Assembly (NCBI GenBank): GCA_003971905.1
Contig: RSEE01000043.1
Span: 248,001 to 312,000, forward strand
From: Moniliella sp. 'wahieum'
Lineage: Eukaryota
DNA length: 64,000 nucleotides
Reading direction: 5' to 3'
Part shown: in pieces, positions 1,842 to 45,435 of the stretch
How the letters are laid out: every line of letters starts with the position of its first letter
How positions within the stretch are numbered: position 1 is the first letter of the stretch
Notes under the pieces: generated by a model
What the model saw: only the letters and a program-made list of their open reading frames with translations
What the model was told of the DNA's origin: nothing
Database searches by the model: none
Translations under genes and position numbers: made by a program

Positions 1842-2863
1842 ATGGTTCTCTCTTGGCTCGCCACCCGCGACTCGGTCGAAAACAACCCGGTCGCGTCCAA
1901 CATCACCGTTGACTCTCATGGTTCTGACTTTGCTTGGGCCATTTTTGCGGTTCAGACCGTGTCTTCCTCTGTCTATCGTCTCATACATTCTTCTATGTCA
2001 ACCGCGGCAACCGGACCTTTGCCTATCTTGTCGCTGCTGCCTTGGCGTGCAACGCTCTCAACTGGTTTGCCCTTGCGTCCAACCTCGGAGCTGTCCCTAT
2101 CACCGTCGAGTTCCACGCTGGTGGCTGGGCAGGCAATGGCACGGGCCACAACCTGGCTCCTACCCGGTCCATTTGGTACGTTCATAGAGCAACGCCCCCC
2201 CTCCCTGCGCTTCCCTTTGTCTGCTTGATACCGTCCTCATGAGATACTAATCTCAACGCCTGTCCAGGATTTCACGATATGTTGACTGGTTCGTCTCCAC
2301 ACCGTTCATCATCATTGCGATCCTCCTTGTGTCGCCCGTGCCGCTCTCGACAATTTTCATGACCGTGTTTTGGTCCGTCTTTGCCATCCTTTGCGGTCTG
2401 GTGGGCGCCCTAACCTACTCGCAATACAAGTGGGGTTGGTTCGTCTTTGGCGTATGCGCTCTGACGTGGGTCATGTGGGTGTTGTGCGGCCCGGCACTGC
2501 TGGCAGCGAAGAAGTCGGGCAACGATGTGTTTTGGGCGTATGTGCCCATCGTTGGTGCCTTTGGATGCTGGGCCATCCTTTACATTATCGCCTGGGCTGT
2601 TGCCGACGCGAGCAATACCATCTCACCCCAGTGAGTTTGTCTATTACGGTGTTCTGGACCTCATCGCCAAGAGCGTCTGCCTCGTTTACCACGTCTATTC
2701 AGTCTCGGGTGTTGAATATGAGCGCTTTGGTCTCTTCTCTAGCAAGGCGTCTCTGTTCGCCGCACCCGAGGCAGCCTCAGAAGTGGAAGCTACTACCACC
2801 ACCCAAAAGCTCGAGCGGACGGTTACTAGGAAGCAGGTGGAGAATCCCGCCGAAGAGGCTTGA
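1842..2863 (+). CDS. Fungal type-1 (microbial) rhodopsin / opsin-related 7TM protein (Hsp30/Yro2/CarO superfamily) retaining the retinal-binding Lys
   Basis: Stitched translation: MVLSWLATRDSVENNP..HGSDFAWAIFAV..YLVAAALACNALNWFALASNLG..PTRSIW|ISRYVDWFVSTP..GLVGAL..YKWGWFVFG..LYIIAWAVADASN..SEFVYYGVLDLIAKS. Intron 2176-2267 (GTACGT..TACTAAT..CCAG). Apparent 1-nt frameshifts near 1965 and 2630. TGA at 2861-2863. Confidence 0.9.
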
Positions 2864-12000: not shown

Positions 12001-13180
12001 TCACATGTCACAGAGCCCTTCTCGCGAATCGTGCACTCATCTCGCGAATCATCATCCGTAGGCAGCATCCTTCTTCCCAGTGAATTTCGCCGTTTAATCC
12101 CTCTGCACCCTTTAGAACTATATACGAAGAGGAGAGAAGTGATATGTATCAGAGATCCCTTTCCTATAGTGTGCAGCATGTGTGTTTAGCGTTAATGATC
12201 AATCCCTCACTTTTTCCCCCTTGCAATAGATTGTGGGTTTCCCCCACGGTCCAATATCGCGTCTTGATAGTGTACTCACCAATCTGTTGAGCCACCGCGG
12301 GTGGCTCAACGTGTGTTTTGGCCCACGCAACGTCCCTTCAATCCCTCCTGAAGCTGCGTATAGGAGTTCCGTTGTTTTCTCCCTCGTTTTTTCTTATTCA
12401 ACCACAGCGCACAGAGTCCAACAGCCGAGTCCAACAGCCCTGGCGGCAGCTGGCTGCTGTTCCTTTGTACTAGTAGGCGTTTTGTTGGCTCGATTCCACC
12501 ACCACCACTGGGATGACATCATCGTCGAGGACCATATCAGGACTCTCCACTGGGTTGTTTCATCACAAATCCACACTGTAGACAACTTATCCTAGTAGAC
12601 TATCCTAAAAGTTTTGCTCCCAGCACCCACAATGTCTCCCAGCTTTCATTCTGCGAGGGCCGCGTCCCAGTCTCGGGGCTAGAAATCCAAATCCAGTCCC
12701 ATCCTCCAGGTAGCGTAGTTGTTCCCCTCTGTCTCGTGGGATCGCGTCCCGTCCCCGAGTCCGAGAGGTTTTTGATAGTATGATATGTTTGCGGTACCAT
12801 TGCCCATCAGGGGTCTGCGTATATATATATGTAGTGGCAGTGCAAACACAAAAAGCAGCATTCACATGCCAATTTACGTCCACCTGTAGGGGCTCATTCA
12901 TAGCCAGCGTCTCTCCCATGTACCGCTGCCTGACCGGCTCGCAGCTTCCGCCAGCTCGCTTTGCCCAGCTGCAGCCAGTAGGTCTAGTATGTTCGTAAAA
13001 GAACCAACACGACAAATAAGCACATAGAATTGGATTGACAGGGCAGGGTTGGGCATGGGTAGGCAGGGGGGCACCAATGAGTTCGACTGAATCCAACTGT
13101 TAGCCTTCGGTAGGTCGGTAGGAAAGTAGCAAGCCTTACACGGCACCGACCATGCCAGCGACGCAGGCACATGCCCGTAC

Positions 13181-19701: not shown

Positions 19702-19953
19702 GGTTTCTGGAGCGGTAAGAAAAGAGAGGCAGAAAACAGAAGAGGGAAGGTGGAAGGCGGGAGATGACAGATGGAAGAGGGAAGATGGGAAAGGCTAGGT
19801 AGAATGCCGAATGGGATGATTCACCACTGCGCTTGCCGAATGCGATGATCATCAACCTCTAGCTTCACGCGTGATGGGGTGCCGGAAGGTACAACTTCGT
19901 CCAATTGCCCAATCATGACCATCACATACAGGGTCTTCGTTCCAAGTCATCAG

Positions 19954-20042
19954 GGGTTCGTGGTGTAGTGGTATCATGCCTCTTTAGGGTTGCGGAAGCT
20001 AACTCATAGAGGTGGTCCTCGGTTCGATCCCGGGCGGACCCC
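19954..20042 (+). tRNA. tRNA-Pro(AGG) with 17-nt intron
   Basis: Acceptor stem GGGTTCG/CGGACCC; anticodon stem CCTCT/AGAGG; anticodon AGG at 19986-19988; intron 19990-20006; T-loop TTCGATC; TTTTT Pol III terminator at 20043-20047. Confidence 0.92.
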
Positions 20043-20641
20043 TTTTTGCTTCGAACGCCTCACACTGTCCTGAGTCCTGTGTACTGCGTGCGTACTGTCT
20101 ACTAACTTTGTACCGTGTGTACTGACTGGGTCCTGGGTGTATTACACTCTTATAGAACCAATCCCTGCCCGAGCCAGCTACAACCTACTTACAACGTAAG
20201 ACCTACGACCCGACGCGTTACTGCGTACCATTCTTCGTCCCCATCACAACGCGATTATTCGTAACGCGCTAACATCCCGAGGAACCCAACCAACACAAGT
20301 GACTAGGGTGGCCGGCCCTCGGACGCCCCGACGACCACAAGACGAGACCAGTTGGCATACCGCCAACCACAGCACAAAAGAGCAGCACGGCGATAGCGCA
20401 TAGGAGTGGACCTGAACCCGACCTACAATCAAACGAGGAGGCACGGCACATCGTAGTACGGTTGCTGGTACCGCTACCCGTGGTTCTCTTTGTCGCGAGT
20501 ACCGGCATAGATGGATGGGTGGGGTAGACACTAGGGGGTTCATATACATAAGAGCGCGGAGCTTCAAGCTTCCAGCAAGGTTCACACGTTCACGCTTCAA
20601 GCTTCAAAGGGCCCAACCAAAGATCAGGCAAGAGGGTAGGC

Positions 20642-24100: not shown

Positions 24101-27035
24101 GGCCTCTTGGATGGGACAGCTTCGTCAATGTGCGCGGGCTCCTTGGTATGAACAGGCTCCTCAGCCGTAGCAGCCACCGGTGGGGCAGGGACAGCTTCTG
24201 TTTCGGTCTCAGTTTCGGCAGGTTGAGGTTGCTCACTAGGCGCGTCGACGACAGGAGCGACCTCGTTGGTGTCGACAGGACCTTCCTCCTCAGGCACAGC
24301 CACCGCATCCTTGGCTTTCTCCTGCATTTGCGCTTCAGGAGCGGTGGCGGATTCAGCAGGTGCAGTCTCTGGCTCAGCCGTAGTAGCTTTGGGCTCAACA
24401 GGGAAAGCCTCCGCATCAACAGGTGCCTCCGAAGCTGCCTCTTTGACGGGCGCAATCTCCTCCACGGGGAGTGCCTCCTTCACGGGAGGCGCCTCCTCCT
24501 TAACAGGAGTTTTCTCTTCCTGGACCGGAGCAGTTACCTCCTCGGCAGGAGCAGTTACCTCCTCGGCAGGAGCAGTCTCCTCCTTGACAGGAGCAGTCAC
24601 CCCCTCAGCAGGAGCAGTCTCCTCCTTGACAGGAGCAGTCACCTCCTCAGCAGGAGCAGTCTCCTCCTTGACAGGAGCAGTCACCCCTCAGCAGGAGCAG
24701 TCTCCTCTTGACAGGAGCAGTCACCTCCTCAGCAGGAGCAGTCTCCTCCTGACAGGAGCAATCTCCTCCTGGATCGGAGCAGCCTTCTCCTCAACCAGGA
24801 GAGTCTTCTTGACAGGAACAGTCTCCTCCTCAACGGGAGAGTCTCCTTGATAGGAGCAGCTTCCTCAGAGACCGGAAGGGCCTTCTCCGTGACAGGAGCA
24901 GCCTCCTCCTTGACCGGAGCAGCCTCCTCCGTGACGGGAGCAGCCTCCTCCGCGACGGGAGCCACCTCTTCAGAACTGGGGGCTTGTGCACGCGACCCAG
25001 CCGCTGCATCGTCGGTAGACGCGCTCTCGATCGCCTTGGGGCCAGGCGACGACTCTGTACCTGTACCCGTTTGAAGGATGGACCTCCTCCTCCTGCTTGG
25101 TCCCAACTTCTTCCTCCACCTTCTCGATGTCGTTGGACTTTGCAAGAGCAGGCGCAGGTTCGTCTGGGGTGTTGGGGGATGCCTTCTTCTGGGAGGTGGT
25201 CAGGTCCGTCTGAGTAGGTACCGTCAGTTTCGCTTTTCTTACTTGGGGGTAAGAGGAAGGGGAAGGAGAGAAAAAAGGGAGGAGAGAAGGGACGGAGGAG
25301 GGGCAGGGAGAAGCATACGAACCTCAGGATCTGTCTTCGTGTTCGTCTCAGTCGCAGCCTCCGTCTTAGTCTCAGGCTGAACCTCGGCGGCAGGGACGTC
25401 CGTACCCTTTTCGGTGCTTGTCGCGGCTGCGGGCTGAGCCTGATCGTCGTCCTTACCTGCAAGAGGAGAGACGTCCTTTGTTGTTTCCCCCTCCTTACTT
25501 GCTGTCTTAGCCGAAGCGCCGCCGCCACAGCCGCCACGCCGCTGCAGCACCAGTAGTAGCAGCACCAGCAGCAGCGCCAGAAGCAGTACCAGCAGCAGCG
25601 CCAGAAGCAGTACTAGCAGCAGATGCCGCCTTAGCGCCCGCGCCCGTAGTGGTTTGGTGGCAGTGGCAGCTGCTGCTTTGGAAGTGGAGGGAGAAGGACT
25701 TTTCTTGCTCCTAAACAAGCCCTTGAAAAAACCAGGCTTGTCTTTCTTGCCGTGCTCGTTTTTGCCTTTGGCTTTAAGCTCTTGCTCCTCTTGGCTTTGA
25801 GCTCTTGCTCCTTCTTGGCTTTAAGCTCTTGCTCTTCTTGGCTTTGAGCTCCTGCTCCTTCTTGGCTTTGAGCTCTTGCTCGCGCTTGATAGCTGCTTGC
25901 TTAGCTTGTAATGCTGCTCCTTCTTGGCCTTCTCTGCAAGTTTGGCCTTCTCCTTTTCAGCCTTCTTTCAGCTTTCTTCTCGGCGCGCGTAGGGGCCTTG
26001 GAGGCGCCTTGCCAGGAGTTTCTTTCTTTCCTGTCGCTGCTGGAACAGCAACGGCTGCTGCGGCTGCGGCTGCGGTTGTGCTGCGGTTGTGGCCGCGGCT
26101 GTAGATGGGGTAGGGGCTGGGGCTGTACCGACCGCGCTGGATTGAACTTGCTCCCCCTCCTCCTTCTTGGGGTGGACAGTGTCCTCCTTAGATTCGTGAG
26201 AGGCAGGAACATCGTCGATGGCACGGGTTGCAGGCGCAGCAGAGGTAGTAGCACCTGTCTTGTTACCCTCGGGTTCAAGAACCTCCGCCGCCTCCTTCTT
26301 GTCCACCTCAGGAGGAGAGCGACAGCGATCTTGTCTTTTTAACGCAGTGGTGTCGCCTTTTGCTCACCCTCAGGCGTAGCGTCTGCTTCGACGGCCGGGG
26401 TAGGACCGCGGTGTCGGTAACAGCCGGGGAAGGGGCTTGACTTACGTTGGCAGGTACAGGTTTGCGCGCCACCGAGTCGCGCGACCCCTGTGCACTAGAA
26501 GACTTGGTCTCCAGTGGCTCGGTCGGGCTGCTGGGCCCGACGGCAGAGGTACCACTGCCCCCGCGGATGCGCCCAACATGGCCGATGCAAGGCCCACGTC
26601 GGCGCTGCCAAATACGGGGGCAACAGAAGTGGAAGTGGAGGTGGTAGGCTGGGAGGGGACGGGACGGTGGCGTTGGTGTTGGTGTCGGAGGTCGGGGGAC
26701 GGGTGCAGAAGGAGAGGGAGCGGGGGCTTCCTCCTCGAGGTCGTCCACGTCGGTCGAGACGAGGCCAGAAGCAGCTTCCTGGCCCGTGGCCTGGTCGACA
26801 AGGACGATGCGGAAGGTGTGCTCGTCGACGCGGGTGGCGGTGTAGAAAGGGTTTGGTCTTGCGTGCGGCGAGTGCGGGGCGCCTCAGCAGCATTGATGGG
26901 CTCGGGGGCGTTGGCAGTGTCGAACGGGTGAAGGCCTGGATGGCCTGGGTGGCGCTGGCCTCGTCGGCCACGGGCACGACGGCGCGGTGGCCGTCGATGA
27001 GCAGCTCCTTTGTGGCGGGGCGGGGAGGGAGCCAT
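21117..27035 (-). CDS. Very large low-complexity Ala/Glu/Pro/Lys-rich protein with internal tandem repeats and coiled-coil segments (function unknown)
   Basis: Chain of compositionally continuous minus-strand ORFs (TAPVKEE/TAPAEEV, AEPAVES and KEQELKA repeats; EERKREKEEKK coiled coil). GT-AG introns at 25210-25322 and 22005-22073. Boundaries approximate. Confidence 0.65.
23360..23530 (-). repeat. Coding tandem repeat (AEP/VES units)
   Basis: Repeated ggctc..cagcag units; translates AEPAVESAAEPIEPAAEP.. Confidence 0.8.
24460..24965 (-). repeat. Coding 21-bp tandem repeat array (7-aa units TAPVKEE / TAPAEEV / AAPVTEE)
   Basis: Unit acaggagcagtc(t/a)cctcct.. repeated at 21-nt period. Confidence 0.9.
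25770..25882 (-). repeat. Coding KEQELKA(K) repeat
   Basis: ggcttt(a/g)agctcttgctc.. repeated five times. Confidence 0.8.
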
Positions 27036-28209
27036 GCGGAGGGGGGAGGTGGTGGGGGAGCGCGGGGGGGCGTGGCGGGCGCATGTAGGGTCGGGCTGCT
27101 GGGGCGATCGCCAGGCGCGCTGGACAGCCGAACTTTGGATCGGCCACCCGAGCGCAGCCCAGCGGCGCTGACGTCACACTGCGCTCTCCTGCGGCCCCCG
27201 CGGCGGCCCCCGTGCAGCGCCCGTCAGCGGCAGTCGCATGTCACACCGTCACCTCGCGGCCATATCCCACGCCATCCCATCACCTCCCCGCGTCCGCCCG
27301 CGTCTGCCGCGGGGCGTGTGCTGGTCGAACCGATTGTCATAGTCACACCACGCGTCGCCCGGCCTGCCCGCGCTGGAAAGAGGCGGGCGAGCAGCCAGAC
27401 AGAGGATCGCCCTCGTGCGATTGGTGCGGCCGCACCCAGCCAGTGGGGCGCACAGCCTCGCAGCTTTGCCCGGGCCGGTCGATCTTGCAAGAGCCTGCCG
27501 GGTCGGGGGCTGTCAGACTCAGGCCTCAGGCTCAGGTCCTGGGCTGCCTCTGTTGCCCAGTTGGGGGTGGATGGGGACTGGGTGCTGGCGCTGCTGGATG
27601 TTGGAAATTGGATGTTGGATGTTGGACCGACACACACGCCCCCTGCCGCCGCCAGCCTTGAGCACAGCCATCGGCCACCCGCATCACCAGAGCATCCCCC
27701 CGCTGTGCCGCGCCCAGCACCTTTCAAAATGCAATGTTCAAGCGAACTCTAGTTGAACGTTCAACGGTCGCACTTTCAACTTTCACGTGCCACATGCATC
27801 CCTCACGATGATCGACTGGATTAGCTCGACAAAACTGCGTCTCCTGTAAGGAAGTGCCGGCTGCTCCCCATCTCCCACCCCGCACGTTTTTTTTTCTGCC
27901 TTCGACATAGCTTCACCATGCTGCGGAATGACCGTAACGCTGCCACTTGTATGGAGACCAAAGAGTATGCAACACCCTCCATGGCATTAGTGACGTGCCT
28001 GAAGCCTTCGGGGCTCAGCTCAGCGACGGGAAGTAGCAGCGGGGGACAAGACACTGCCGGAAGAGCTGGGACTGACTGGGACTTGGCTCCCGATGTGGCT
28101 CATGACGAGCGCCGACTCGACTTTTTACTAGTAGTACTTGACCGTAAGAGCGCTGAGACGAGGGCGGATAACGAGAGAGGCAGAACAGGGAAGATGAGGA
28201 TGTCTGCAT

Positions 28210-28365
28210 CGCTCCCATGTCCAATTTCTGTACCGAGCGTCTCGCTCTTTCCCTGTTTTTCCACTTCACACATTAGTCCTCTGCTCTTGCTTCTTCCCCA
28301 CAAACGATTGCTACACCCCTGGCCTAGTCCGATGCTGGTCTCCTCGCCTTAGCCCGACTGTGACA
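28210..28365 (+). mobile_element. Solo/remnant LTR related to the LTR at 45046-45248
   Basis: Shared blocks with 45088-45248: tcgctcccat.tccaatt, ccgagcgtctcgctctt, gtcctctgctcttg.ttcttcccca, ctcgccttagcc(c)gactgt..ca. Ends in CA. Confidence 0.7.
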
Positions 28366-31629: not shown

Positions 31630-32067
31630 GAGGCGGGTGGAGGGGTGGAGGATGAGTATGTGTGGGTATGCGTGTGCCGACTGGTTTTTGTGGGCCGGTG
31701 GGCGTCGGGCGGGCAAGGTGAGGGGTGGGCTAGGGTTGCCGTACCGCGCCACTCTCGTCTGGTGTCATTTAACTCACCCCGCAAGCCGCAGCACACCCTT
31801 CATCTTGCCTTCAATGGCCACCCAGACTGAACTGAGGAGTGCTCGCTGAGTGCTCACTGAGTAGTCACTGAGTATGAAGTCTTAGAGCATTGCCGCAGGT
31901 TCCTACCGATCCTCGGCGGTCTCTCAACGCTCCAAACTTCCTATGGTGCTGCGCGCGCGTAGCCCAGCCGCCCGATTGGCTTCTGCACCTTGACTAGAAT
32001 TAAATAGATTGATACGCAAAAAGAAACTGCATGCGACCTTGCTCTTCCCCGTTCAAGGACGGCGGCG

Positions 32068-33317
32068 TTAAAGGTTGTCCACAAAAGAGACGCCCTTGGT
32101 GATGTTGCCAGCGAGGTCGGTCACAGCGTGCTGGATCAGACCGTTCTCGTACTCCGACACTGGTCCTAGTGGGTGAATTTTCTCCACCCCGTTTGGGCCA
32201 AGCGTGATGGGCACACTAAAGAACGGGATCTGGGATCCAACGACCTCCTGCACCGCCTTGCCCCCCGCTGGCTCGGATGCTAGATCGACAAACGAGTATT
32301 CCACCGACGTCGGCTTGCCCGCCGCTGCATCAAGCACTGCCAACGCAAAGCGCGCACCAGCATAGGCCATCGCCAAGGTCGCGCTGCCACTGCCATTCTT
32401 GGCCTTGACCACCTCGTCACCACCAAATTGGATCCGATTCGTCAAAGCCTCAATTTTGGCTTGGTCGACCGACTGCAGATGGGGGATCAGTTGATCGGTC
32501 AGTTGCCAGCACCAACATAGCTCAACAAAATCAGACACAACGCACGCAGACTCGGTGTTGTCTGGCTCAAAAGAGGGACAATGGTCAGGCCCGAGTGGCC
32601 TCCAACGACAGGGACCTTGTAGGTCGATGCAGCATGCGGGGCGCCCGCGGCCTCCGAGACAAAGGTACTAGCTCGTACGAGATCCAGAGTGGTCACGCCA
32701 AACAGACGCTTTGGATCGTAGACCCCCCTTTTCTTGAGCACCTCGGCAAACACGGGTACGGTCGAGTTGACTGGGTTGGAAATGACCAGCACAAAGGCCC
32801 TCGGCGCCGCCTCGGCAACACCCTCGGCAATGCCAGCGCAGATTTTCGCATTGACAGTGAACAGGTCGTCCCGAGTCATACCGGGCTTGCGCGGTACACC
32901 GGCAGGGATGACAACAAGGTCCGCCCGTCAACGCAGCTTTGAGACCATCGTTCTCAGGCAGGTAGCCCTGCACCGTCGAGCCCGTGTCAATGTGGGCCAG
33001 GTCCGCTGCAACACCGGGCGCGTTGACCACATCGTACAACGCTAGCTCGGAAATGGCAGGCGAGCTCTTCAATAACAGAGAAAGCGGCTAGCCTGGATGA
33101 GTGGAACGGGTCAGGACACTAGCATGGAGACTCACTCACGAGGTGCGTGGGTAGGGGGGGGGGGGGGGGGGGGGTGGGGGTCGTACCAATACCTCCAGCG
33201 GCACCGCTGCGGACGAAAACGGGCAGAAGAACGGCGGTGGAGAGGAGGTTAGCTAGCGGGACGCGGGGACATGCACGTGGAAGGGGCAAGAACCCACATG
33301 ACGACAGCCTTGACCAT
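32068..33317 (-). CDS. MDH: NAD-dependent malate dehydrogenase with no mitochondrial presequence (cytosolic/peroxisomal type)
   Basis: [110 protein letters not shown]. Two 20-nt exons (33298-33317, 33187-33206). TAA at 32068. Confidence 0.95.
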
Positions 33318-35072
33318 GGCGGAGGGGTGGAGGATCAGAGGGGCAGATGGTGCTGAAGAGGAGGAATGAAGCTGGGACAAGCCAGAAGCGGCTAGCCCCC
33401 CCACCGGAACCGACCGGCTCGGCCCGACTGAGAGGGACGCACAACCCTACTGGCCCCCTTACTGAGGCACGGAGTGCGCTCTAGCGGCCAGCAGTGGGGT
33501 GGGCCGCACCCTGCCACTGTGCGGGAAAGAGCAGGAGGCGACTGTCCACACGCGGGCGGAAGGCGATCGTCGGAAGACCGCACGGGCTCAGCTCAGCGCT
33601 GACTCAGCGCTGAGACTCAGCGGCACAAGCCTTCGCTTCTGCGGCACGACGCGTGACGTGACGCCCCGCGAGATGGACTGCCATCGCGACTGCGTTGACC
33701 CAGTCTTTGGAGGATGGTGACACGCGCGAGGAGGTGGCCGTGGCAGGCCTTTGGAGGAACAGGATGATTGCGTGGACATTTGGAGTAGTACCGGGACCAC
33801 CTGCAGGGCAAGGTACACACCAACGAAAGAGAAAACGAGGGTCGCACACATCCCAGCGAAATGAGGGGAGTGGCGGGAAGAGTTATTGGTCTGCGCACCC
33901 AAAATCCAACTGACCATTAGTATCTTCGTACTCGTTTATTCTCATCGGCGCCATCGACAATCCCTGGTTCTCTATTGGTTAAACCCATTAACCGAGGTAT
34001 ATGTCCAATGCGTTTGGTACTCGATGGCAGTGCAAGCTGTCCCTGTAGCGCATCACGGTCAAAGCCCTGTTGCTTGAGCCAGTTGCCCACCCAGGCTCCT
34101 TGAACCCCCGCTGTTTTGGGGCGATGCCCCAATCACGCCATCCTGCATGATACATCACCCCGGTACCCTCGATTATATAACTTTTCATCTCAGAGCATCC
34201 TGTACCTCTCCTTAGAACCACCACCTCCATTCTCTCCTTCAGCACCCGCGGCGATGGACCATGTAGGACCCGAATATCCCCATGAAATGACGTTGCCCCG
34301 CTCATTGCCCCTCAGCTGAGGCTCAGCGCCCTCAGCTCAGCGCATCGCGGGCCGCAAGAAGCTGGTGTTCTGGTGATAGATCCAACCGCGGGCATATTGT
34401 CCACCCGAATCAGCTCCTTGACTTTGAGCAGCTCATCAGCGACCCAAGGATGCTGCGGGGCATGTAGAACGCTTGCATGCGGGACCATAAACCCAACGCA
34501 GCAATGACACGCCACAAAAACCCAGGGCGTTCTCATCATGCCACGTGATTAATGATTGTACAACACGAAAGTGTATTGTAGGGCCAAGACCACATTAGAT
34601 CAGTCGGGGCGGCAGCGGCCTCCCGCCACTGCCTCCGGAGCCACTTCAGTAAACGTTCAGCAGGCGGATGAGCACCAAGCGCCTCCTCATCGACCTCATC
34701 AATTAATTTCCTCTGGTGTGGGTGAAGCCATTTGGGTCCAGGAGGATTCGGGTGGCGGAATGCGTGTTGGGCAATTAGAAACGTGCAGGCGGAATTGGAT
34801 AATCAGAGCTACGGTGCGTGTATATCCCTGCGCGAGCAAGCAAACGCTCACATTGCAACTCGTAGGCCCAAGGACTTCAGCCTTCGACCACTCACTCATA
34901 CCTGGGATGACACGTAACGCGTAACGCGTCCCGGCGTCAACCTTGCCAACGACTGTTTTGGTATGCCTCCGCAATCTGTTGAGTCAAGAACCCATCAGTC
35001 AGAGAGTGAAAGGATTGCGCTCGGATCAAACGAAAACGGGATGACTTCGTTTCAAAGAAGAAGGAAAAAATA

Positions 35073-35165
35073 CGACAATGACAGGATTCGAACCTGTGCA
35101 GGCAGAGCCTAATTGATGGTTAGTAACGTTCTAATCAATCCCCTTAACCGCTCGGGCACATTGCC
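35073..35165 (-). tRNA. tRNA-Ser(AGA) with 11-nt intron
   Basis: Reverse complement GGCAATGTGCCCGAGCGGTTAAGGGG ATTGA TT AGA A [CGTTACTAACC] A TCAAT, long variable arm, GGTTCGAATCC, CATTGTCG; oligo-T downstream. Confidence 0.95.
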
Positions 35166-35624
35166 ATTGTTGCAAGGAATCCGCTTTAGATATCTTATCA
35201 ACATCAATGGAAAAGCGAAGTTGAATATCCAAAAGCATCGTTCCTAAAGGCCTACAGGGAAGGAGTAAAAACAGAGACATGGAAACCCGCAAAAAGACGG
35301 GAAATGAGCTTGACTCGTGAGACCAGCCAAACGATGAGAGATCATCGATCATGTGCCATCGATGGGCCCGGACTAGGGCCCAACCCACGGTTTTGGTGTG
35401 TTTTCTTTCCCTTGTGGAGAGAGGACAGACCACCCTCACAGCTGCGATTGTAACGGGGTTGCTGGCTTCCCCAGCGGAGACCTTCCCTGCCCATCGGAGA
35501 CAAGACTCACGGAGGACTAAACACGTTTCAGATCCAAAGTCCAAGGAACACTGGCGTGAACGTCGTGAGTAGTGCTTTGCTGTTCGTCGGGTAGAGCCAG
35601 GAAGCGGCCGCGAGGAGGTTGCAC

Positions 35625-36030
35625 ACGTTACGAGCTTGACGAGAAAGCTGGGAATTCGGAACGGTGGTTCTTCTAGAGTGGAGTTAGCCTAGAAGAAGGG
35701 TGATTTGTAAAGAGATTGGTGGACGGCTTGGGCTTTTGGGCCATCACAATTAGATCTAAGAATAGGCAGGTTTTATATAGAAGAGAAGGGGGACAAAAGA
35801 AAGACCGACAGATCTATAGCTAAAAGTGCATGTGAGGGACACGAGGCAAGAGACGAGGCAACAGAGTCAAGGGCCAAGCTGACCCGAGACGAGATACGGG
35901 CCGAGAAACCGAATCGAAACCTTGCGTAGCGTTTTGGACTTTTAATAGATGAAGGCGAGTGGAGAAGAGGGGATTGTTGTGGGTTTTGTAGATCGGCCAA
36001 TGGGGGGCACCGTCTCGCCGTGGCCACGTT
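35625..36030 (-). mobile_element. Possible LTR remnant
   Basis: Minus strand: CT-rich tract, TATATAAAA, ending AAGCTCGTAAC. The same 12-mer (cgttacgagctt) recurs at ~45263 beside the other LTR. Confidence 0.35.
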
Positions 36031-36859
36031 GCGTATGTACCGGAAAGAGCAAGACTAGTGTGCCTATATAGTACATTGTCCTGGAAAAGGTTGGCAGGAA
36101 GGGCAGCAATGCAGGCAACAACTACAAAAGGGGTTGGGAGAGGTTCTTTGTCACTGGAAGAATGCTACTCTCGTAGGATCACCACGGGATCCTTACAATG
36201 AAGAATGGTTACGGTCGACGGCAATGGGGGATTCCCCACAGAAGGCTGAAAGACCAAAATGTGAGCGGCCCTCTTGCACGACCGGGGTCGGGTTGCACCT
36301 GTTGCGGCGGTAGCGGGTGTGCGACGCCATCTGGAGCGTGCTGAAAGCGCGTTGTCTCCGAAACTAGACGAGAAGTGGCCTGTCTCTGCCCCAGCAGTTC
36401 CCCCTGATTTCATCTGGCTCCGATAGCGGTTCAAACGGCGATGTCAATATATCTCTCAGACCAAGTAAAGACAAAAGTAAAGATGTGGAGAAAACCCGCC
36501 CAATAAAAGGCGTGAGGCCTCTGTTGACGGCAAACCGTGAGCCTCGGCAGATCTGATCCAATCCAAGGTCTGATGCTTTCCAATCCTAATAGAGCTTGCC
36601 CCCGCCCCAACCTAGTCCCTGTCACAGAAGAACGTGAGCGGGTAAGGCCAGCGGAGCCTATACGCGCTCCCTTCCTTCTTCGTTTTCATAACCCCAACAC
36701 CCCAGTTTTGGTTATTGGATCTGATCTGATCTTCTATGAGCTGAGATGTCCAGCGTGTGACCACCAGCGGGATCCACCAGTCTTCCGTATCCGGGCGATA
36801 ACAATTGCCCCTCGCCCACAAGTGAATTGGTAACCATCGCCTGGTTACGGAATTGTCAG

Positions 36860-37760
36860 TAACCCCGTTTGCGACGACCATCGTCGTCCCATGTCCGTTT
36901 ACCTTACCTTGCTAGGTTGCCAGTGCGACAACGCCCCCCCTGTTTTCTCCTGGCTCCCGTTCTTCCTCTTTTCTATGCACTGTTTCCCTATTATTAGTCC
37001 CGATCTGTAAAAGCAATGGTTCGTGGTTTTCCCCCGCGGTATATTCCTCTCCTGTCCTCGCCAATTGTTGATCAATCCAGTACAACAGGCATCTCCTCCT
37101 CTTAGTTATTGCCTCCCGCTCTTTGCCCTCGTCATCCAGCTCCCGTCTCCAACTCTCCGTCCTTCAGTTAATCCAGTTCACATGTGCCCTCCTCGGGTCT
37201 GCCACGTCGAAGTCCAGCTAAGTTCAGCCGCTTGTGATCCCGTTTTCAGCCACATGACCTCTCCAGTTCCAGTCCAGCTCCACAGTCTGTCAGTGTTATG
37301 TTCCCCCGCTGCCAGTTCCCGTCTCTGAGCCCGAAGGCTTCAAACACCCTGTTCCTCCCAAACCAGTGCTATACGCAGCCTTTCGGCACCTACAGCCACC
37401 TCTGCTATAATACGCCAAGAGGCCACTCCCAGTCCCTACTACTATATACGGGCCCCCCCGCTCGGACCCAAAGCGCGAACTACCATGGGTCTACCTTAGG
37501 ACCGCCAACGCATTGTACTGTACCCCTTAACCCTCCCCCCCATTCCCCCGGGCAGGCACCCTGGCGGTGTCCACTCGGAGGAACAATCTCGATCGTGCAG
37601 CTGCTGTACCAAGTTCGGTGCCAAAAAAACGGCCATCCTCTCGATACCACGTTGTATCTATATGGCAACACCAGTCGGCCCAGTTGCCTTGATATTTATA
37701 CAATCTTCTGTTCTTCCCCGCGTTTCTTCCCTTTTTGGGGGATGGAACGGGTTATTATGC
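36860..37760 (+). mobile_element. Degenerate second copy of the internal region of the Ty3/gypsy-like element at 43600-44300
   Basis: Colinear shared blocks with 43850-44230: atccagtaca..caggca.ctcctc, cccg(a/g)aggcttca.acac, cc(a/g)gtgc.a.acgcagcctt, aactacc.tg.gtc.acct, ccctggcgg. Confidence 0.6.
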
Positions 37761-37932
37761 ACACAGACAACTGGGGAGAAAGGCGGTAAACTCATAGTAA
37801 GATTCACTGCATAGCTCCCACAAGAGCTAATATGCCCCCATTCGCATAGGAAGGGAAAATATAAGAACAATGCTGCTGCAGTGCCGCTGGTCGCATGTCA
37901 CCAGTGTATAGTACGCAATTCATCCACACAAC

Positions 37933-38350
37933 ACTTCTCAAGAGTGAAATGATCATCGAGGCCAAACACTCTTGCATCCATTGACATGCGCAGGACCAGG
38001 TACGATCTTGGTGCGGAATTTGGCCACCATGATGGACTGTGGGTGGGACAATGCTCGTACTGAATGGTTCCGGCCTCCGCCCATTTGCGCATTGCCTTGA
38101 GCTCAACGTCGTAGTTCTTGCTGCGACCATGCTTCTCAGTTGCCGTCAAGTAAGCCAGAGCACAGACTGATTGTCTACTAGTTGATATTCATGCTCTTTT
38201 GATTCTTCTCAAAGTCCTTTGCGATCTTGAGCACATGGGTTGCCTCACGAGGGCCTTCTATGGCAGCATTGAGCTCAGCCTCGGTAGTGAACAGGGCCAG
38301 CTTGATCTGCTTGCGATTTGCCCACCACACAGCAGCGCCAGCCAACACAG
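37933..38350 (-). mobile_element. Ty1/copia retrotransposon remnant: RNase H domain, PPT and start of 3' LTR
   Basis: Minus strand VLAGAAVWWANRKQIKLALFTTEAELNAA..VDNQSVL..HGRSKNYDVELKAMRKWAEAGTIQYEHCPT matches the copia RNase H pattern (ISWxSKKQ..ALSTTEAEY..DNQSA..HxRTKHID). Followed by TTGAGAAG-TGTTG at 37933. In-frame stops present. Confidence 0.85.
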
Positions 38351-38452
38351 CGGATCACGAAAAGATCATATATGTTTAAGATATAAAATACCTTCAAAAA
38401 TGTCAGAGGAGTAATTTGCCGTGGGTGAGGCAATTCTGTCAGCGCGCTGCAG

Positions 38453-38560
38453 GTCAGTTACATCGTCGATGTCACCACCCTGAACGTCAGATATGTCCTC
38501 GATGTCATCCCCTTGAACGTCAGATACGTCGCCGACGTCACCCATTTAAACGTCAGAAAC
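38453..38560. repeat. 33-bp tandem repeat, three copies plus a partial
   Basis: gtcag recurs at 38453, 38486, 38519 and 38552; unit ~gtcagata(c/t)gtc..cga(t/c)gtca.cc..tgaac. Confidence 0.85.
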
Positions 38561-40102
38561 GCGTTGACGCGCCCCTGGGCGACGTATCTGACGAATCTGA
38601 TCCTCCTATGCTAGCTTTTCCTGGGTTACTATTGGTACACGGGTCACACTCCAGGCGGTACAAATTTCAGGGGTACCTAACGGAAGATGCGTGTCCGCAA
38701 TGCCCTAGAAATTCTCCCATGCACTCGTCCAGCTCAGTAGATAGCTTGCGGGGCGATGAGTGAAAAAAGTCAGATGACCTGCTGGGCGACAACGGGGTAG
38801 CGACGTACTTATGATCGAACAAAGAGACAGTGATGGCACTGAAAATGCCACTGCAGCGGTTACTGTTATTCAGACTCCCGTTGAGCAAGACGGCGCACAT
38901 CGCGGAGGGGTCAGGGAAGCTCTGATGTGTAAGACACGTCCTATTTCCCTCTGGAAGTCAATGTTGTTCGGTGCGTAGCAACAGAAGCGCTTTTTGATGA
39001 GAACGGGGGCAGTAAGTTTATTATGGCCATATTGCGATGAGAGCAACGCGTGAAGAGGCTGGGCCAGTACGTACCAGCTTGGCGGCGGTGAGCTCTTGGT
39101 GAGAGAGGCTGCGAAAGTAGACTGGAAACTTATGGCACACCAAATCAGCCTGAAAGGCTGCAATTGCGCGCCTTCCGTTGCCTCGCGAAGTCGGGGATAA
39201 GGAGGAAGGATAACAAAGTGTTGAGAATCTTTGTGCAGATTTTAGTCCGTAAGCAACCTAATGGCCGATCAGGCTATAGCCAGCAACCCTTAGAACGGTG
39301 TTCCTATACTGAAGAGATGAGCTTGTCTCGCGGGTTTCACAGAATTGACATGTGTTTCAAGAGATGGCTGCGACATATCAACAGGCTCTGGGTCTGGACG
39401 CCAGAGAATTTGCTGGTAATAGTAGTTAAGAAGTAGCGTTGAATCGTGATTTTGTTTGCTCCAGTGGGGTGACCGATCATTCAGGTTATAGCTCTGTCAC
39501 AGCCATAATAATTCGTCATGGCGGTGCAGAGTAGTAGTAATAAAGGAACAGACCTGTGAGAATAAATACACAATAGTACGGGAGACGCTGATCGGATATA
39601 TTGACTGTGCCTGATTCCGTCGTATGTCACTGAGGGCCCATCGCCGCTGTACCAGGGAGCTATGATGAGAGACCAACAGACGGAGAGCAGAAGAGATCAC
39701 TAAAAGGGAGTTAAACACACCAATGAATCAAAGGGGAAAACAATGCATGGAACACTTCATCAAACAGTGGACGAAACATGGCTAAGAAGAGAATATAGGC
39801 CAGATGTTATTTTCGTGGGAAGTGTGGGCCGAACAAGAGCAACATGGCTATCAGACATCATGCTCCGACAATTCGTTCATGGTGACTATCCAATGGTCGT
39901 TAGTGAGCTATCTTAATATTGGACAAATCATTGCGTTTTTGATTGGATTGGATTCGCGACTGCCTGTCTATTAATAATACCCATCACTGAACTCACGCAT
40001 ACCTTTTTCTGCATTCGCGACCAAGATCAGGTGTACGGACTGGTGGTAATTTGGGCAGCGCACCACAGCAAGCAGTGATTGCATTCCTCCGTTCTCGTCG
40101 TC

Positions 40103-40681
40103 ATGTCGGCCTTCCCTTCACAAGGCTCGTCTCCCGACGGCACACCTCGCACTACCACCACCGACCAGGGTGACAAAACGAAGTCGAATGTAGGCCTGCT
40201 CCATCTAGACCCTTTGAACGCGGATGGTGCCGCCTCCTCTCCCGTTACGGAGCAAGGCACACGCCCTCTTTCGGCCTCCACCAGGCGCAAGCGCATCTAT
40301 ATTTTCTCAGCGGTTGTCGCCACCGTCATTGTGCTGGCCATCGCGCTGGGTGTAGGTCTGGGGTTGGACTGAGTCACTACATACACAAAGATTCGGATGA
40401 ACAACATCGCCCTGGCTCCAGCCCCAAACGTTCTCTGCCTCCTTCTCCGGTGGGAACCACGTTTTTGCGATTCACCCCGTGCCCTAACGTTCACCCAGGC
40501 CACTGTGCCCCTCATGCACTCCTCCCTGTGGGCCGACCCAGAAGGCACAGCACCCAGCAACGCAACGATGGCTGTCGTGGTCCGACATGGGATTGGGCGT
40601 AACTTTGATGCCGCCTTTGCCGCATTGGCCCCCATTCTTGACCTTGGCACGACGGTGCTCGTCTCGCCCAACTTTTACTAA
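40103..40681 (+). pseudogene. 5' fragment of a type II membrane-anchored, probable alpha/beta-hydrolase-like gene
   Basis: RRKRIYIFSAVVATVIVLAIALGVGLGL signal-anchor, then AVVVRHGIGRNFD..TVLVSPNF. Sequence switches abruptly to AT-rich non-coding DNA after ~40700. Confidence 0.5.
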
Positions 40682-42399
40682 CCTACCGACGTGCCTCGGT
40701 TGCACAAGAATGTCTGTAGACCGTTACCTTTATCCATCTTCTCGTCAAACGTCGTATAGTTTTGACCTATGGCAAACTCAGTAGATTTGGGCGACAACCA
40801 AAGAACAATTGTCAGCATGCACCGATCAGGCACAGATCGAATGAACTCGAAAAAAACACAGATATTCACGAAGATGCTCGGCTAGTAATTCATTGTTTAA
40901 GTTCTACTATTACTTGCAAAAACACTGGGCATCAAGCGCATATATTTCTTTGCATACTATGAGTGATACTGATTCTTACCAATTCGCTCCACTATCAATT
41001 GGTAGATGGAATCGTATTTCCGGCACTGCTTGAGAGAGGCTACCATTATATGCCGTGTATTTCAACAGAATATAGATATTGAGCAACATTTTTGAATTCA
41101 TGGCTTATGCAAACAGGAGCAACATGATTCCAGTTATGCGACTATTCAGGATAGGAATAGAAGACGAATTATTTTTTTCCAGGGATGATTCATCGGTTTG
41201 GCATCCAATGACATGCATGTGCGTCTAACGGTCGCGCACGATAGGTGCCAACAGTACATTCTATCCGTCACGCCGGATACGGTATCTGCCACCAGAAGTA
41301 ATGGGTTCTCAGGTCGCTGGTGATGGGCATCAGCCTGCACAATTCAGTAGAAAAGATGCGGTGTATCGTTACTACAGTTCTGAGAGGTCGTTTAGGCTGG
41401 TGTGACTACGGATGCCAGCATGTCCATAATCAAGCGATCACTTTACGCCTATTTATAGAAGTAGTCGAACCTTAGCTAGGACTGTCTTTAGGAAGAACTA
41501 CGGAGAAAATAGAAATGGATAGTACCCAAAAACCACGAGAATTTTACATGCTGGTACGTGCTTGAACAACTTGTCAAGGTTACAACAAATTGACTTTTGG
41601 GTGCACTGAAGTGCCGGGCAGTGTAGGAAAAGGAATCGCGGAAATAACAGGAGGCATTTCTCCCTCACGTTTCTTAGCTCAAACGTGAAGGCAGAGTGCC
41701 CCAGCTCCTGTCAAATCAGCCTTGCCCCTACATGAATTGGAGAACGTATGATTGAATTTGAGGCTGAAACCACGTCCTGCTTGTCCGATGGCGCGATATG
41801 TGTAACAACACGCGTCCTGTATCAGTGAGGTGTGGATGTCAAGGGGATCGGCAAACCAATCCATCGTTCTATCCTCATTCACTCTGTCTACTGGGCCAGA
41901 TGCATTTTGCGTGGTAAAAACAAGTGAAGAGCTGCAGTGAAGTTTTTGGATGCTGTTGCTAGGAGGCATTGTTGGCTCAGCGAACAGTTAAGCGACGTGT
42001 CTGAAACCGTTCGGACTCTGAAGAGGGACGGTGTGGACAACTGTATGCTGTCCTGACCAGTGAGATGAGTGCGGGAGTAGAGCCTGAAATCTGGACTGCC
42101 AGAGTGGATGAGGCTGCGTGGCGAAGATGTTCGATCCTGTTTTTTTCGTCTGTCATCCGGTGCAAATCCCAACTCTCGTGACCAGGTCCCTCCCCCGCGC
42201 GTCATCTCCTCCTTCGAGATTTACGCGGGCATCGCACTCACCCTTATCGGGACGCATCATGGATTGACCGCTTCATGGTCCTGCTGTAGGGGGAGAGGAC
42301 CTTACTTGGGTGGAGCAGTTCGATTCGGAGGTGAATCTTCCTATGGAGACGCACACCGCTCCGGTCTTAGTCTTGGTTTGCGTTTCGTGCGACCCTCAT

Positions 42400-45248
42400 G
42401 AAAAATAGTGAGGCGAGCGCAACCCGGCGCAAAAGGATTTTGAGGAGGTTTCATCGTTACCGGAAGACGGGATCTGCGGCGGACTATTCCGCTAAATTCA
42501 CAGTCCTGCTGTGCATTGCTGGAACCTCAACGTGTCGGCTCTGAGAACGCTACTGGAACTTCCGATTATTAAGGCTTGAAGCCGTAGGTGCATGACGCAA
42601 TCTTCGCCTCCCGCGGCGAGTCGGTTCACTTTGGGCGGATCAGTTTCGAAGAACTGTGCACAACAGCGGCCATTGACATCGATCAATCCCACTAGCGGGG
42701 TGCGTACGGTACGGCTGGTTCCCCGGCATCGGGCGGCAAACATTGGTTTCAGCCTTCACCTCCTGAGGCCAAGCCCATCAGGATCTCACAGTCGACCACC
42801 CCGCCGCGGAAGCCGAACGCCACGTTAGGCTTGCTTCTGCTACGGCTCCCGTAACCACCTCACTGCCGGGTGCCCCACCTCGTAGTCTCCTTCTGTGGCC
42901 TCCACACGGCCCCGCCATGACTGATCCTATCTGACGCGGTCGTGGGGTTTTGCCTTACCTCCCCTCGGTCGTTTACAGTACTCGAGTTCACTTGCATCCT
43001 CTGGCCCTTCGTCTCCCGTCTCCGTCCCTCCAAATTCCGGTTACCGCCTTGGCCACAAAGGCTCTCTGTTGGTGCAAACATCGTTCTCATGGACCACTGC
43101 ACCCCGTTCTCCTCTGTTAATTTGACCCCGTTTCCCTCCACGTTTCCTCCCAGCAAGCCGTCCACTCCCCTCCTCCCTTTCGCGCTCCCCCCCACACCCC
43201 ATCTCACGGTACGCAACAACCTTTCCCATAACTCCCTCCCGGCAGCCTCTGACCGGAGGAGTCTCTACTACGTGCCTCCCCGATCTGGACCGCCTATTGG
43301 CTTTCTCTCACCAAGGCAGTTTGAGCTCGAGATGTAGTCAGGGAGCCTGAACTCATTGTAAGCGTCTAGTCGACAGTGGGTGTCACGGGCTGCGGCGGAC
43401 ACGAGATGGTCCGACCAAAGCTAAGGCCCGCCTGCTCCGCACATGCCCACAGTAGAGCGTGCTCCGCAGGCCAACCAAGTGTGATGATGGTTGGCTAAAT
43501 TAAGTATCGTGGCCGAAGGGCCATGCTCCGCTCGGCAATAGTCGCCCCCCGCCCAAGTCCAAGCCGGCTGGCTTAAATAGGCCACCGAGCTTCCAGTGCC
43601 GTGGCGACGTCTGCCGCCCCGTCCCCGCCCCCGTTTCCGTTTCCTTTCTCGGTCGCGCCTGCGGCGACCAACCCCGCTTTTGACATGTCTTCCTTTCTAC
43701 ACCCCCTCTTGTATCCGTTTCCCTTTTGATCCTGCCTGTACCCCTGGTTGATGGGGATCTTTTCCCCTACCTTCTCGTCCTTCTCCGACGTCATTCTCGT
43801 CTCAACCCCCTCGTCTACTCCTCTCGCCTATCCTGTCCGACTCCCACCCGTTTTCCAGCCAATTGATCCAGTACAGGCAGCTCCTCTTGTTAGCGTTCCT
43901 CCAGCCATTCGTCAGTCCAGTCGCGCGAGCCCTCCTTTGATCGCGTCGATTCCCAGTGTCAGTTGAGGCAGTGTTTGTCCCCCTCTGCCTCCTCCCGTCC
44001 CTAAGTCCCGGAGGCTTCAGACACGTTACTACGGCCCAAGCCGGTGCAGACGCAGCCTTGCCACACGTGCAGCCACCCCACCAAAGGCCTCTCCTCGTCC
44101 CTAGCTGCGCTCGGATACACCAACCAGCCTAAGCCCGAAACTACCGTGAGTCGACCTACCGTCGCCTAAGGGATTGTACCCCCAAAAACCCCAGGGCGGG
44201 GGCCCCCTGGCGGCGCCGGGGCTCGTCTCGTCCGTCGCCGTTGTTGGCGGTTCCGAGATGTTCCCGACGAATCACACTCGCGTATCTGGAGCACATCTGC
44301 CAGGCGGTCCCTCCCAGCTACCCCATTCCTTCCGTAGCGCCTTCTCCAAGTTAAACGGCCGTGGAGGTGCGGCGTCATTATGTCAAAAGTGTTGAGACTC
44401 CAGTCCAAGTACTTACAGATCATGAGGCCATTACTACGTTTCGCCGTCCTCGCCTGTTGAACCGCCGCCAGGGACGATGATGCTAGATTTTCCCCCCTAT
44501 CGCCTTGCTACTATTGTGGTCAACGGCGGTCCCCTTCTACGTCCAGCCTGACTTGGTCGGCCAGGGCGGGTATTTGTCCAGCCAGCGATCTTCTGACGGC
44601 CTTGACTATCGTTACTACATCGGGCCCTTTCGAATTGTCCGTTGTTGGCAGCGCCGCATATCAGATCCGCTTTCCCATTGCGGACTTTCTACACCTTCAT
44701 GGCGAGTTCCATGTGTCCCGCTTGCGTGCCTACACCCCGGGTGACGTGGTCCCTGCCCGTTGTGGCTGGAGTCCCCCCCCCATCCTCTCCCCGAATATGG
44801 TGACGATAATTGCTATTCATCACGATGTCGACACGTCCTCGACTCTCGCCGCAAGGACCGTGGAGGCCACATTCGGCACTTTTTATTTCTTCACTTTCGT
44901 GGCTATTCCCCATCCACGAACGGGAGTGGTATACCGCCACGAACATGTCTCTCATTATCCCGAACCGGTGTTTCGTTTCCAAGTGTCGCTCATGCCGTCG
45001 TCGACTCTCGCCATCTCTCGCCTCCGCCGACGACCGGGATCAAGGTGTGAACGGGGTCAAGGACATATATACTGTTTGCCTATCTCCTCGCTCCCATTTC
45101 CAATTCCTTCGTCCGAGCGTCTCGCTCTTCGCCTGCTCTTCCTCTTGGCACCACATATGTCCTCTGCTCTTGTTTCTTCCCCACGACGATTGGAACGCTT
45201 TTTAACTTAGTCTCACCTCTGGGTCTCTCGCCTTAGCCGACTGTTGCA
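42400..45248 (+). mobile_element. Degenerate, internally deleted Ty3/gypsy (chromovirus-like) LTR retrotransposon with 3' LTR
   Basis: Decayed Gag zinc knuckle CFCYGSRNHLTAGC at 42832-42873 (second Cys to Tyr). Integrase C-terminal GPF motif LDYRYYIGPFRIV / VGSAAYQIRFP..LHGEFHVSRLRAY at ~44600-44733. LTR TGTGAAC..TGTTGCA at 45046-45248. No RT motif recognised; 5' boundary approximate. Confidence 0.8.
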
Positions 45249-45339
45249 ACAGCTATCTCGCCCGTTACGAGCTTAGAAAACCAACACAGTTTTCATGGCA
45301 ACAGATACATAAAGTCTCTTTCTCGATCTGTGACGTAAT

Positions 45340-45435
45340 GGCAATGTGCCCGAGCGGTTAAGGGATTGATTAGAACAGTTGTGTCTAACCATCAATTAGG
45401 CTCTGCCTGCACAGGTTCGAATCCTGTCATTGTCG
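45340..45435 (+). tRNA. tRNA-Ser(AGA) with 15-nt intron
   Basis: Exons identical to the 35073-35165 copy except one fewer G in the GGGG run; anticodon AGA at 45372-45374; intron 45376-45390; TTTTT just downstream. Confidence 0.93.

Follow-up and report, generated by a model that had tools for sequence, protein, structure and literature searches.

A gene-free interval between two divergent tRNA-Ser(AGA) genes of Moniliella sp. 'wahieum', possibly an old retroelement graveyard

A stretch of 64,000 nucleotides (nt) from Moniliella sp. 'wahieum' (assembly GCA_003971905.1, contig RSEE01000043.1, positions 248,001 to 312,000; called the window below, with positions counted from its first letter) contains two divergent tRNA-Ser(AGA) genes, which enclose some 10.2 kb of DNA (the interval). 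The explanation that we favour, with a probability of about one half, sees in the interval gene-free DNA that holds an old graveyard of retroelements, lying between tRNA-Ser genes that were placed independently of each other. What is observed directly is the tRNA genes, the base composition, the lack of genes, and a single 3' end of gypsy-like type with its long terminal repeat (LTR); we infer that most of the remainder derives from retroelements, and why it is located there.

According to this explanation, the interval would be mostly unrecognizable DNA together with what erosion has left of the 3' end of one or more LTR retrotransposons of the Ty3/gypsy type, of which the C-terminus of the integrase, a purine-rich tract, and an LTR of ~180 bp would survive, plus short dispersed repeats and perhaps a trace of a copia element. 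Retroelements would have landed in, or merely been tolerated in, gene-free space beside RNA polymerase III (Pol III) genes. Ordinary drift, rather than repeat-induced point mutation (RIP) or CpG deamination, would later have truncated and mutated them until profile searches could no longer recognize them, while the exons of the tRNA genes would have remained nearly identical because both genes are, or recently were, selected as tRNA-Ser(AGA).

A probable Ty3/gypsy-type 3' end beside the right tRNA gene

The remnant of the integrase (see Table 1 for the coordinates of the main features) sits inside an open frame of 249 amino acids (aa) at 44461-45207(+), in which residues 55-91 match the Pfam family SH3_Tf2-1 (18 bits, E 0.0033). 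A phmmer search of this frame against 1.84 billion representative proteins returned two matches, P0001 and P0002, of which the latter, an immunoglobulin-repeat protein, was rejected as spurious. P0001 is, by Pfam, a five-fold tandem repeat of a unit made of SH3_Tf2-1 and Chromo, and it shares 45% identity with the frame over 42 residues. One unit of P0001, compared with the entire window by tblastn, matched only 44623-44745(+) (E 1.6e-4), the remainder being at chance level. Judged by eye, the part upstream of the GPF motif carries on in a different frame, implying a frameshift. With this modest support, we accept 44623-44745 as what appears to be a real, if eroded, tail of a Ty3/gypsy integrase. 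No chromodomain was detected in this gypsy remnant of the window itself.

The other parts of such an element were looked for in the interval. Neither Pfam nor a motif search revealed the reverse transcriptase (RT), RNase H, protease, or integrase core of a Ty3/gypsy element there, and the single [YF]xDD motif of the window lies outside the interval. Two gypsy-like copies had been claimed by a sequence-only reading of this DNA: one appears to be the remnant just described, but an internal comparison at the protein level, BLASTP, and tblastn did not find a second. A candidate for it near the left tRNA gene (a 'GPY' at 35888-35902, minus strand) was discarded since the motif stands in a frame of only 24 aa; a BLASTP comparison of the neighbouring out-of-frame open reading frame (ORF) with P0001 and the tblastn search with the P0001 unit gave nothing near that gene. 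A string resembling a zinc knuckle at 42832-42873(+) was taken as chance, because it fits only a loosened pattern that occurs five times in the window and has no Pfam match.

About 300 nt downstream of the integrase remnant lies an LTR-like unit, F1, which has one other copy in the window, at 28.2 kb. By blastn, the two copies are 83% identical over 107 nt (at 28209-28310 in the second copy, E 3e-20); pairwise alignment and an nhmmer profile extend the similarity to 45070-45249 and 28206-28365. In both copies it starts at TGT and stops at ACA, and this boundary between paralogues suggests that TGT and ACA are the ends of the unit. An integrase tail, a polypurine-like tract, and an LTR, in that order, have what looks like the anatomy of the 3' end of a retrotransposon. 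The palindrome TGTTGCAACA at 45241-45250 forms the end of the F1 LTR, and a related string, TTGTTGCAA, occurs at 35167-35175, only 2-10 nt away from where the left tRNA gene has its 5' end, probably by chance.

The LTR pieces reported in the interval come down to one F1 unit, which has its partner at 28.2 kb, and no LTR pair. Indeed, neither nhmmer nor a repeat search found a second F1 in the interval, where there is also no LTR pair and no direct repeat of at least 40 nt, so that no target-site duplication can be looked for; two LTRs with TG...CA ends and a target-site duplication were not found there. At 28.2 kb, the sequences on either side of the copy agree at just 3 of 4 positions. This copy shares a short intergenic gap, bounded by two long ORFs and far from any tRNA gene, with an inverted copy of a dispersed repeat, F2 (27979-28073), which lies about 130 nt away; the F1/F2 pair is probably another scrap of a retroelement 3' end. 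F2 is about 110-135 nt long and shows no coding signal. Its matches in the window comprise three strong and two weak ones, of which two strong and one weak fall in the interval, that is, three out of five in 16% of the window.

The tRNA genes and the question of targeting

That two divergent tRNA-Ser(AGA) genes stand at the ends of the interval, with near-identical exons and differing introns, was borne out. Both genes belong to RF00005, for which the Rfam covariance model has a gathering score of 29, with scores of 46.3 bits for the left one and 42.0 bits for the right one; the assignment to serine is based on the long variable arm of class II and on the anticodon AGA, both taken from the sequence. 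In a same-sense alignment, the exons differ by 1 nt (the introns measure 11 and 15 nt): at the junction of the D-stem and position 26, a run that reads GGGG in the left copy is shortened to GGG in the right one. Given this deleted nucleotide in the D-arm, the lower Rfam score, and the failure of ARAGORN to call the gene, the right copy is possibly impaired. A permissive Rfam scan of 33-48 kb revealed no further tRNA gene. Elsewhere in the window, ARAGORN called an intron-bearing tRNA-Pro(AGG) at 19953-20043(+), which falls below the Rfam gathering score and is surrounded by ordinary gene-dense DNA, with no island and no adjoining copy of F1 or F2.

One could imagine that such similar genes arose by a recent inverted duplication of a tRNA locus. 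This was ruled out since the similarity stops at the ends of the genes: alignment and blastn show that, outside the genes, the two loci have in common no more than 3 nt at the 5' side and, at the 3' side, a T-run. As the flanks are unrelated, near-identity marks neither a recent inverted duplication nor a pair of genes that were once adjacent, and the once-adjacent head-to-head pair proposed earlier finds no support in flanking sequence. Two genes that belong to one isoacceptor family may be expected to have near-identical exons.

The absence of common flanks also matters for a quite unlikely explanation in which the Pol III machinery (TFIIIB/TFIIIC or a subunit of Pol III) steers LTR elements to the upstream side of both tRNA genes, insertions having split a once-adjacent pair by 10 kb. 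It is true that F1, whose last position is 45250, stops 89 nt upstream of the tRNA gene on the right and has the same orientation as that gene, much as the sequence-only reading had described it (about 90 nt), and that the 5' sides of both tRNA genes face the interval. Moreover, Ty3/gypsy elements that target tRNA genes are known, namely, Ty3, DGLT-A, and Tj1 of Schizosaccharomyces japonicus (PMC5911963, PMC5006619). However, this is a single junction; the other copy of F1 lies more than 6 kb from any tRNA gene, so that only one copy in two is near one; no trace of a retroelement was detected beside the left tRNA gene; and the tRNA-Pro gene has neither F1 nor F2 as a neighbour.

The spacing and the type of the element argue in the same direction. 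Ty1-like elements keep a wider spacing from tRNA genes. The LTR elements described in PMC5006619 as inserting upstream of tRNA genes do so at about 13-25 bp, the non-LTR element TRE5 sits at about 50 bp (PMC5006619, PMC5911963), and 89 nt fits none of the spacings given in the passages of these two papers that deal with such insertions. The element that is supported here is of the Ty3/gypsy type, and its nearest match in the databases, P0001, carries a chromodomain, a domain that is associated with the targeting of heterochromatin in other organisms (PMC5911963); Skipper-1, which has one, goes to centromeric heterochromatin (PMC5006619, PMC5911963). The window itself weighs mildly against a strict rule of Pol III targeting.

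Comparison with the systems in which such targeting is established leads to both likenesses and differences. In the Ty and solo-LTR debris of Saccharomyces and in DGLT-A and H3R of Dictyostelium, as here, broken remains of LTR elements lie 5' of a Pol III gene in a compact genome, and the DGLT-A elements, like those of the interval, are mostly truncated (PMC5006619). In these organisms, however, there are dozens of copies at a fixed distance and targeting has been shown experimentally, whereas here there is one junction of 89 nt and the other copy of F1 is not near a tRNA gene. In S. japonicus, Tj1 and clusters of centromeric tRNA genes again bring together a Ty3/gypsy element and tRNA genes within a block that has no other genes (PMC5911963). 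There, however, the element is intact and multi-copy, and its targeting of tRNA genes has been demonstrated by experiment, whereas the interval has an eroded integrase tail and an LTR only.

Coding content and composition of the interval

No intact gene had been seen between the tRNA genes, and this holds: there is no convincing gene in the interval, and from 31800 to 44460 no ORF reaches 200 aa, which makes this the longest gap of its kind in the window. The truncated host gene that had been placed there was not found; its best candidate, 40079-40780(+), has neither a Pfam match nor a relative, and this frame matched nothing in a word-indexed protein search confined to near lengths. When stop codons are replaced by X and all six frames are translated throughout, the interval contains no Pfam family at E<=0.05, and hence no detected gag, protease, RT, RNase H, or integrase core. 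The interval has 154 ORFs of at least 45 aa, of which 144 were scanned with Pfam, with SH3_Tf2-1 as the one retroelement-related match; for 63 ORFs E was relaxed to 2, and these gave no further retroelement family. The degree of erosion is seen in the empty six-frame scan, the frameshift at the GPF motif, and the lack of an LTR pair. Among 110 ORFs taken from other low-GC stretches and from the flanks, Pfam found no retroelement domain and only two genes, one rhodopsin-like and one for a malate/lactate dehydrogenase.

The lower GC content between the tRNA genes was confirmed as a drop, to 0.53 as against 0.60 at 15-35 kb and 0.61 at 45.5-59 kb, but not as a trough bounded by these genes. GC is below 0.55 at about 34.5-42.5 kb and again at 45.0-47.0 kb, with 42.5-44.5 kb at the level of the flanks (0.59-0.60), and the edges of the trough do not coincide with the tRNA genes. 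RIP raises TpA/ApT above about 0.89 and lowers (CpA+TpG)/(ApC+GpT) to below about 1.03. No such signature exists across 35166-45339, where these indices are 0.75 and 1.14, both close to the flank values; the observed-to-expected ratio of CpG is 0.88, with 0.86 and 0.93 in the flanks. Since the indices and the CpG ratio are like those of the flanks, both RIP and methylation-driven deamination of CpG were ruled out as the cause of the lower GC.

The copia RNase H mentioned in the sequence-only reading can be discerned by eye at 38149-38324(-), but no tool supports it. Its resemblance to a copia-type RNase H relates to what we take to be the consensus, and is a lead only. The copia-like ORF of 58 aa had no supporting match in Pfam, in a word-indexed protein search (longer lengths), or among PDB sequences, where the rows were at chance level, and Pfam gave no Ty1/copia domain in the interval (six frames, and the 63 ORFs at relaxed E). 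Pfam is not known to have a model dedicated to the RNase H of copia elements.

Several points weigh against the graveyard. Retroelement ancestry that tools support (the integrase remnant plus F1) covers only about 0.5 kb of 10.2 kb, far less than the sequence-only reading had stated, and for the rest of the interval a non-coding or lineage-specific origin of an ordinary kind is conceivable. The match to SH3_Tf2-1 is below the curated Pfam cutoff of 30, and its E of 0.0033 is not significant alone over 144 ORFs. The E of 9e-12 for P0001 is inflated because it sums five copies of one 42-residue match, and among the 1.84 billion proteins, none but P0001 and the spurious P0002 reached E 0.001. The 249-aa frame had no match in a word-indexed protein search (longer lengths) or among PDB sequences, and the ESM Atlas gave nothing usable. 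Finally, the interval has 24 ORFs of at least 100 aa, as against a median of 11 (5-95% range 6-16) in mononucleotide shuffles, an excess that could mean unrecognized coding sequence or mere patchiness of composition. We attribute it to strand-biased, pyrimidine-rich patches (skews), which leaves room for unrecognized coding remnants.

An unlikely, though by no means negligible, explanation is that all of the interval except one small scrap of a retroelement consists of unremarkable DNA, non-coding or lineage-specific, which may include unannotated intron-rich orphan genes; chance or an old local duplication would then have made neighbours of the tRNA genes. The empty Pfam scan of the six frames, the lack of internal paralogy at the protein level, the lack of homologues of the tested ORFs, and the excess of ORFs over shuffles all agree with it, as does the fact that 38 of the 40 ORFs of at least 200 aa scanned elsewhere in the window are likewise without a Pfam match. 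It accommodates less well the gypsy integrase remnant with its LTR, the dispersed F2 pieces, the copia-like trace seen by eye, and a GC content below that of the gene-bearing flanks. Nor does the third-position GC of the interval's ORFs follow the pattern found in genes that have support.

Another explanation, which we consider improbable, is that the interval, or a wider block at 33-47 kb, is the short regional centromere or a heterochromatic block of a basidiomycete that would have lost most of its transposons, in which the tRNA genes at the edges could be chromatin barriers. In its most specific form, the 33-47 kb block would be the short regional centromere of the chromosome, with the inverted tRNA-Ser genes acting as Pol III-dependent barriers at the edges of the core, as in fission yeast, in a high-GC basidiomycete; this we regard as very unlikely. 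The ideas of a barrier, a centromere, or an inversion are, as such, possible ones. The longest ORF-free stretch of the window is here, the nearest gene that Pfam supports ends at about 33.1 kb, GC is lower, and only truncated gypsy and possibly copia remnants are inside. Weak evidence also comes from a helicase in the flank, for which the closest cluster in the Atlas is predominantly basidiomycete. The literature provides a parallel in the RNAi-deficient basidiomycetes, where the centromeres of Cryptococcus deuterogattii (~14 kb) and those predicted in Ustilago maydis (~12 kb) are ORF-free with truncated gypsy and copia remnants, so that size and content match (PMC5866544). Gypsy elements also cluster with tRNA genes at the centromeres of S. 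japonicus (PMC5911963).

Against a centromere, nothing in the sequence is specific to one, the drop in GC is modest and patchy, there is no CpG depletion of the kind that suggests methylation, and the window has other gene-poor stretches of lower GC, 3-4 kb long; the prior for a random window of 64 kb is only a few percent. The likeness to C. deuterogattii and U. maydis consists of a 10-14 kb ORF-free block with truncated Ty3/gypsy, and possibly Ty1/copia, remnants in a basidiomycete-like genome (PMC5866544). The difference is that their centromeres are defined by the binding of CENP-A/CENP-C, by synteny, and by there being one locus per chromosome; flanking tRNA genes are not mentioned in the passages of PMC5866544 that describe those centromeres.

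The significance of the interval depends on which of these explanations is right. If it is only a fossil bed beside tRNA genes, nothing new is added, such beds being textbook matter in yeasts and amoebae; both retroelement debris beside tRNA genes and ORF-free basidiomycete blocks with remnants are already known. It would be of modest importance if the LTR families of this fungus aimed at tRNA genes throughout the genome, and a limited literature search found no basidiomycete example of such families. A true centromere bounded by tRNA genes would make it possible to approach the boundaries of centromeres in this lineage through their sequence.

Other features of the window

Table 1. Features of the window, with positions counted from its first letter (a point stands for no strand)
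Feature	Position	Strand	Basis and remarks
Malate/lactate dehydrogenase gene	32071-33087	-	Pfam; nearest Pfam-supported gene to the left of the interval
tRNA-Ser(AGA)	35073-35165	-	Rfam RF00005, 46.3 bits; ARAGORN; 11-nt intron; class-II cloverleaf, B box, downstream T6
Interval between the tRNA genes	35166-45339	.	10,174 bp; GC 0.53; no convincing gene; no RIP or CpG-depletion signature
tRNA-Ser(AGA) copy	45340-45435	+	Rfam, 42.0 bits; no ARAGORN call; 15-nt intron; downstream T5
Putative Ty3/gypsy integrase C-terminal GPY/F-SH3 remnant	44623-44745	+	Pfam SH3_Tf2-1, match to P0001, tblastn
LTR-like unit F1	45069-45250	+	~180 bp; TGT...ACA ends (probable); purine-rich stretch just upstream
Second F1 copy	28201-28365	+	nhmmer, alignment; purine-rich tract in front of it; no third copy in the window
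Dispersed repeat F2, copy 1	43951-44088	+	blastn, alignment, nhmmer; no coding signal
Dispersed repeat F2, copy 2	37276-37410	+	blastn, alignment, nhmmer
F2 copy	27979-28073	-	Strong match
F2, weak match	12695-12771	+	nhmmer
F2, weak match	41990-42030	-	nhmmer
Possible Ty1/copia-type RNase H trace	38149-38324	-	Two reading frames; by eye only
33-nt tandem repeat	38437-38561	.	About 3.7 copies, 73-80% identity; adjoins the copia-like trace

Three further observations concern the DNA to the left of the interval. A run of about 27 G (33154-33180) directly precedes the malate/lactate dehydrogenase gene on its upstream side. The rhodopsin-like gene corresponds to a bacteriorhodopsin-like domain (Pfam PF01036, E 1e-11) in the ORF at 2251-2631(+), presumably an exon of a fungal opsin. 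At 24474-24962, amid long ORFs, there are internal direct repeats of about 70-72% identity over 200-330 nt, which probably represent a repetitive coding segment.

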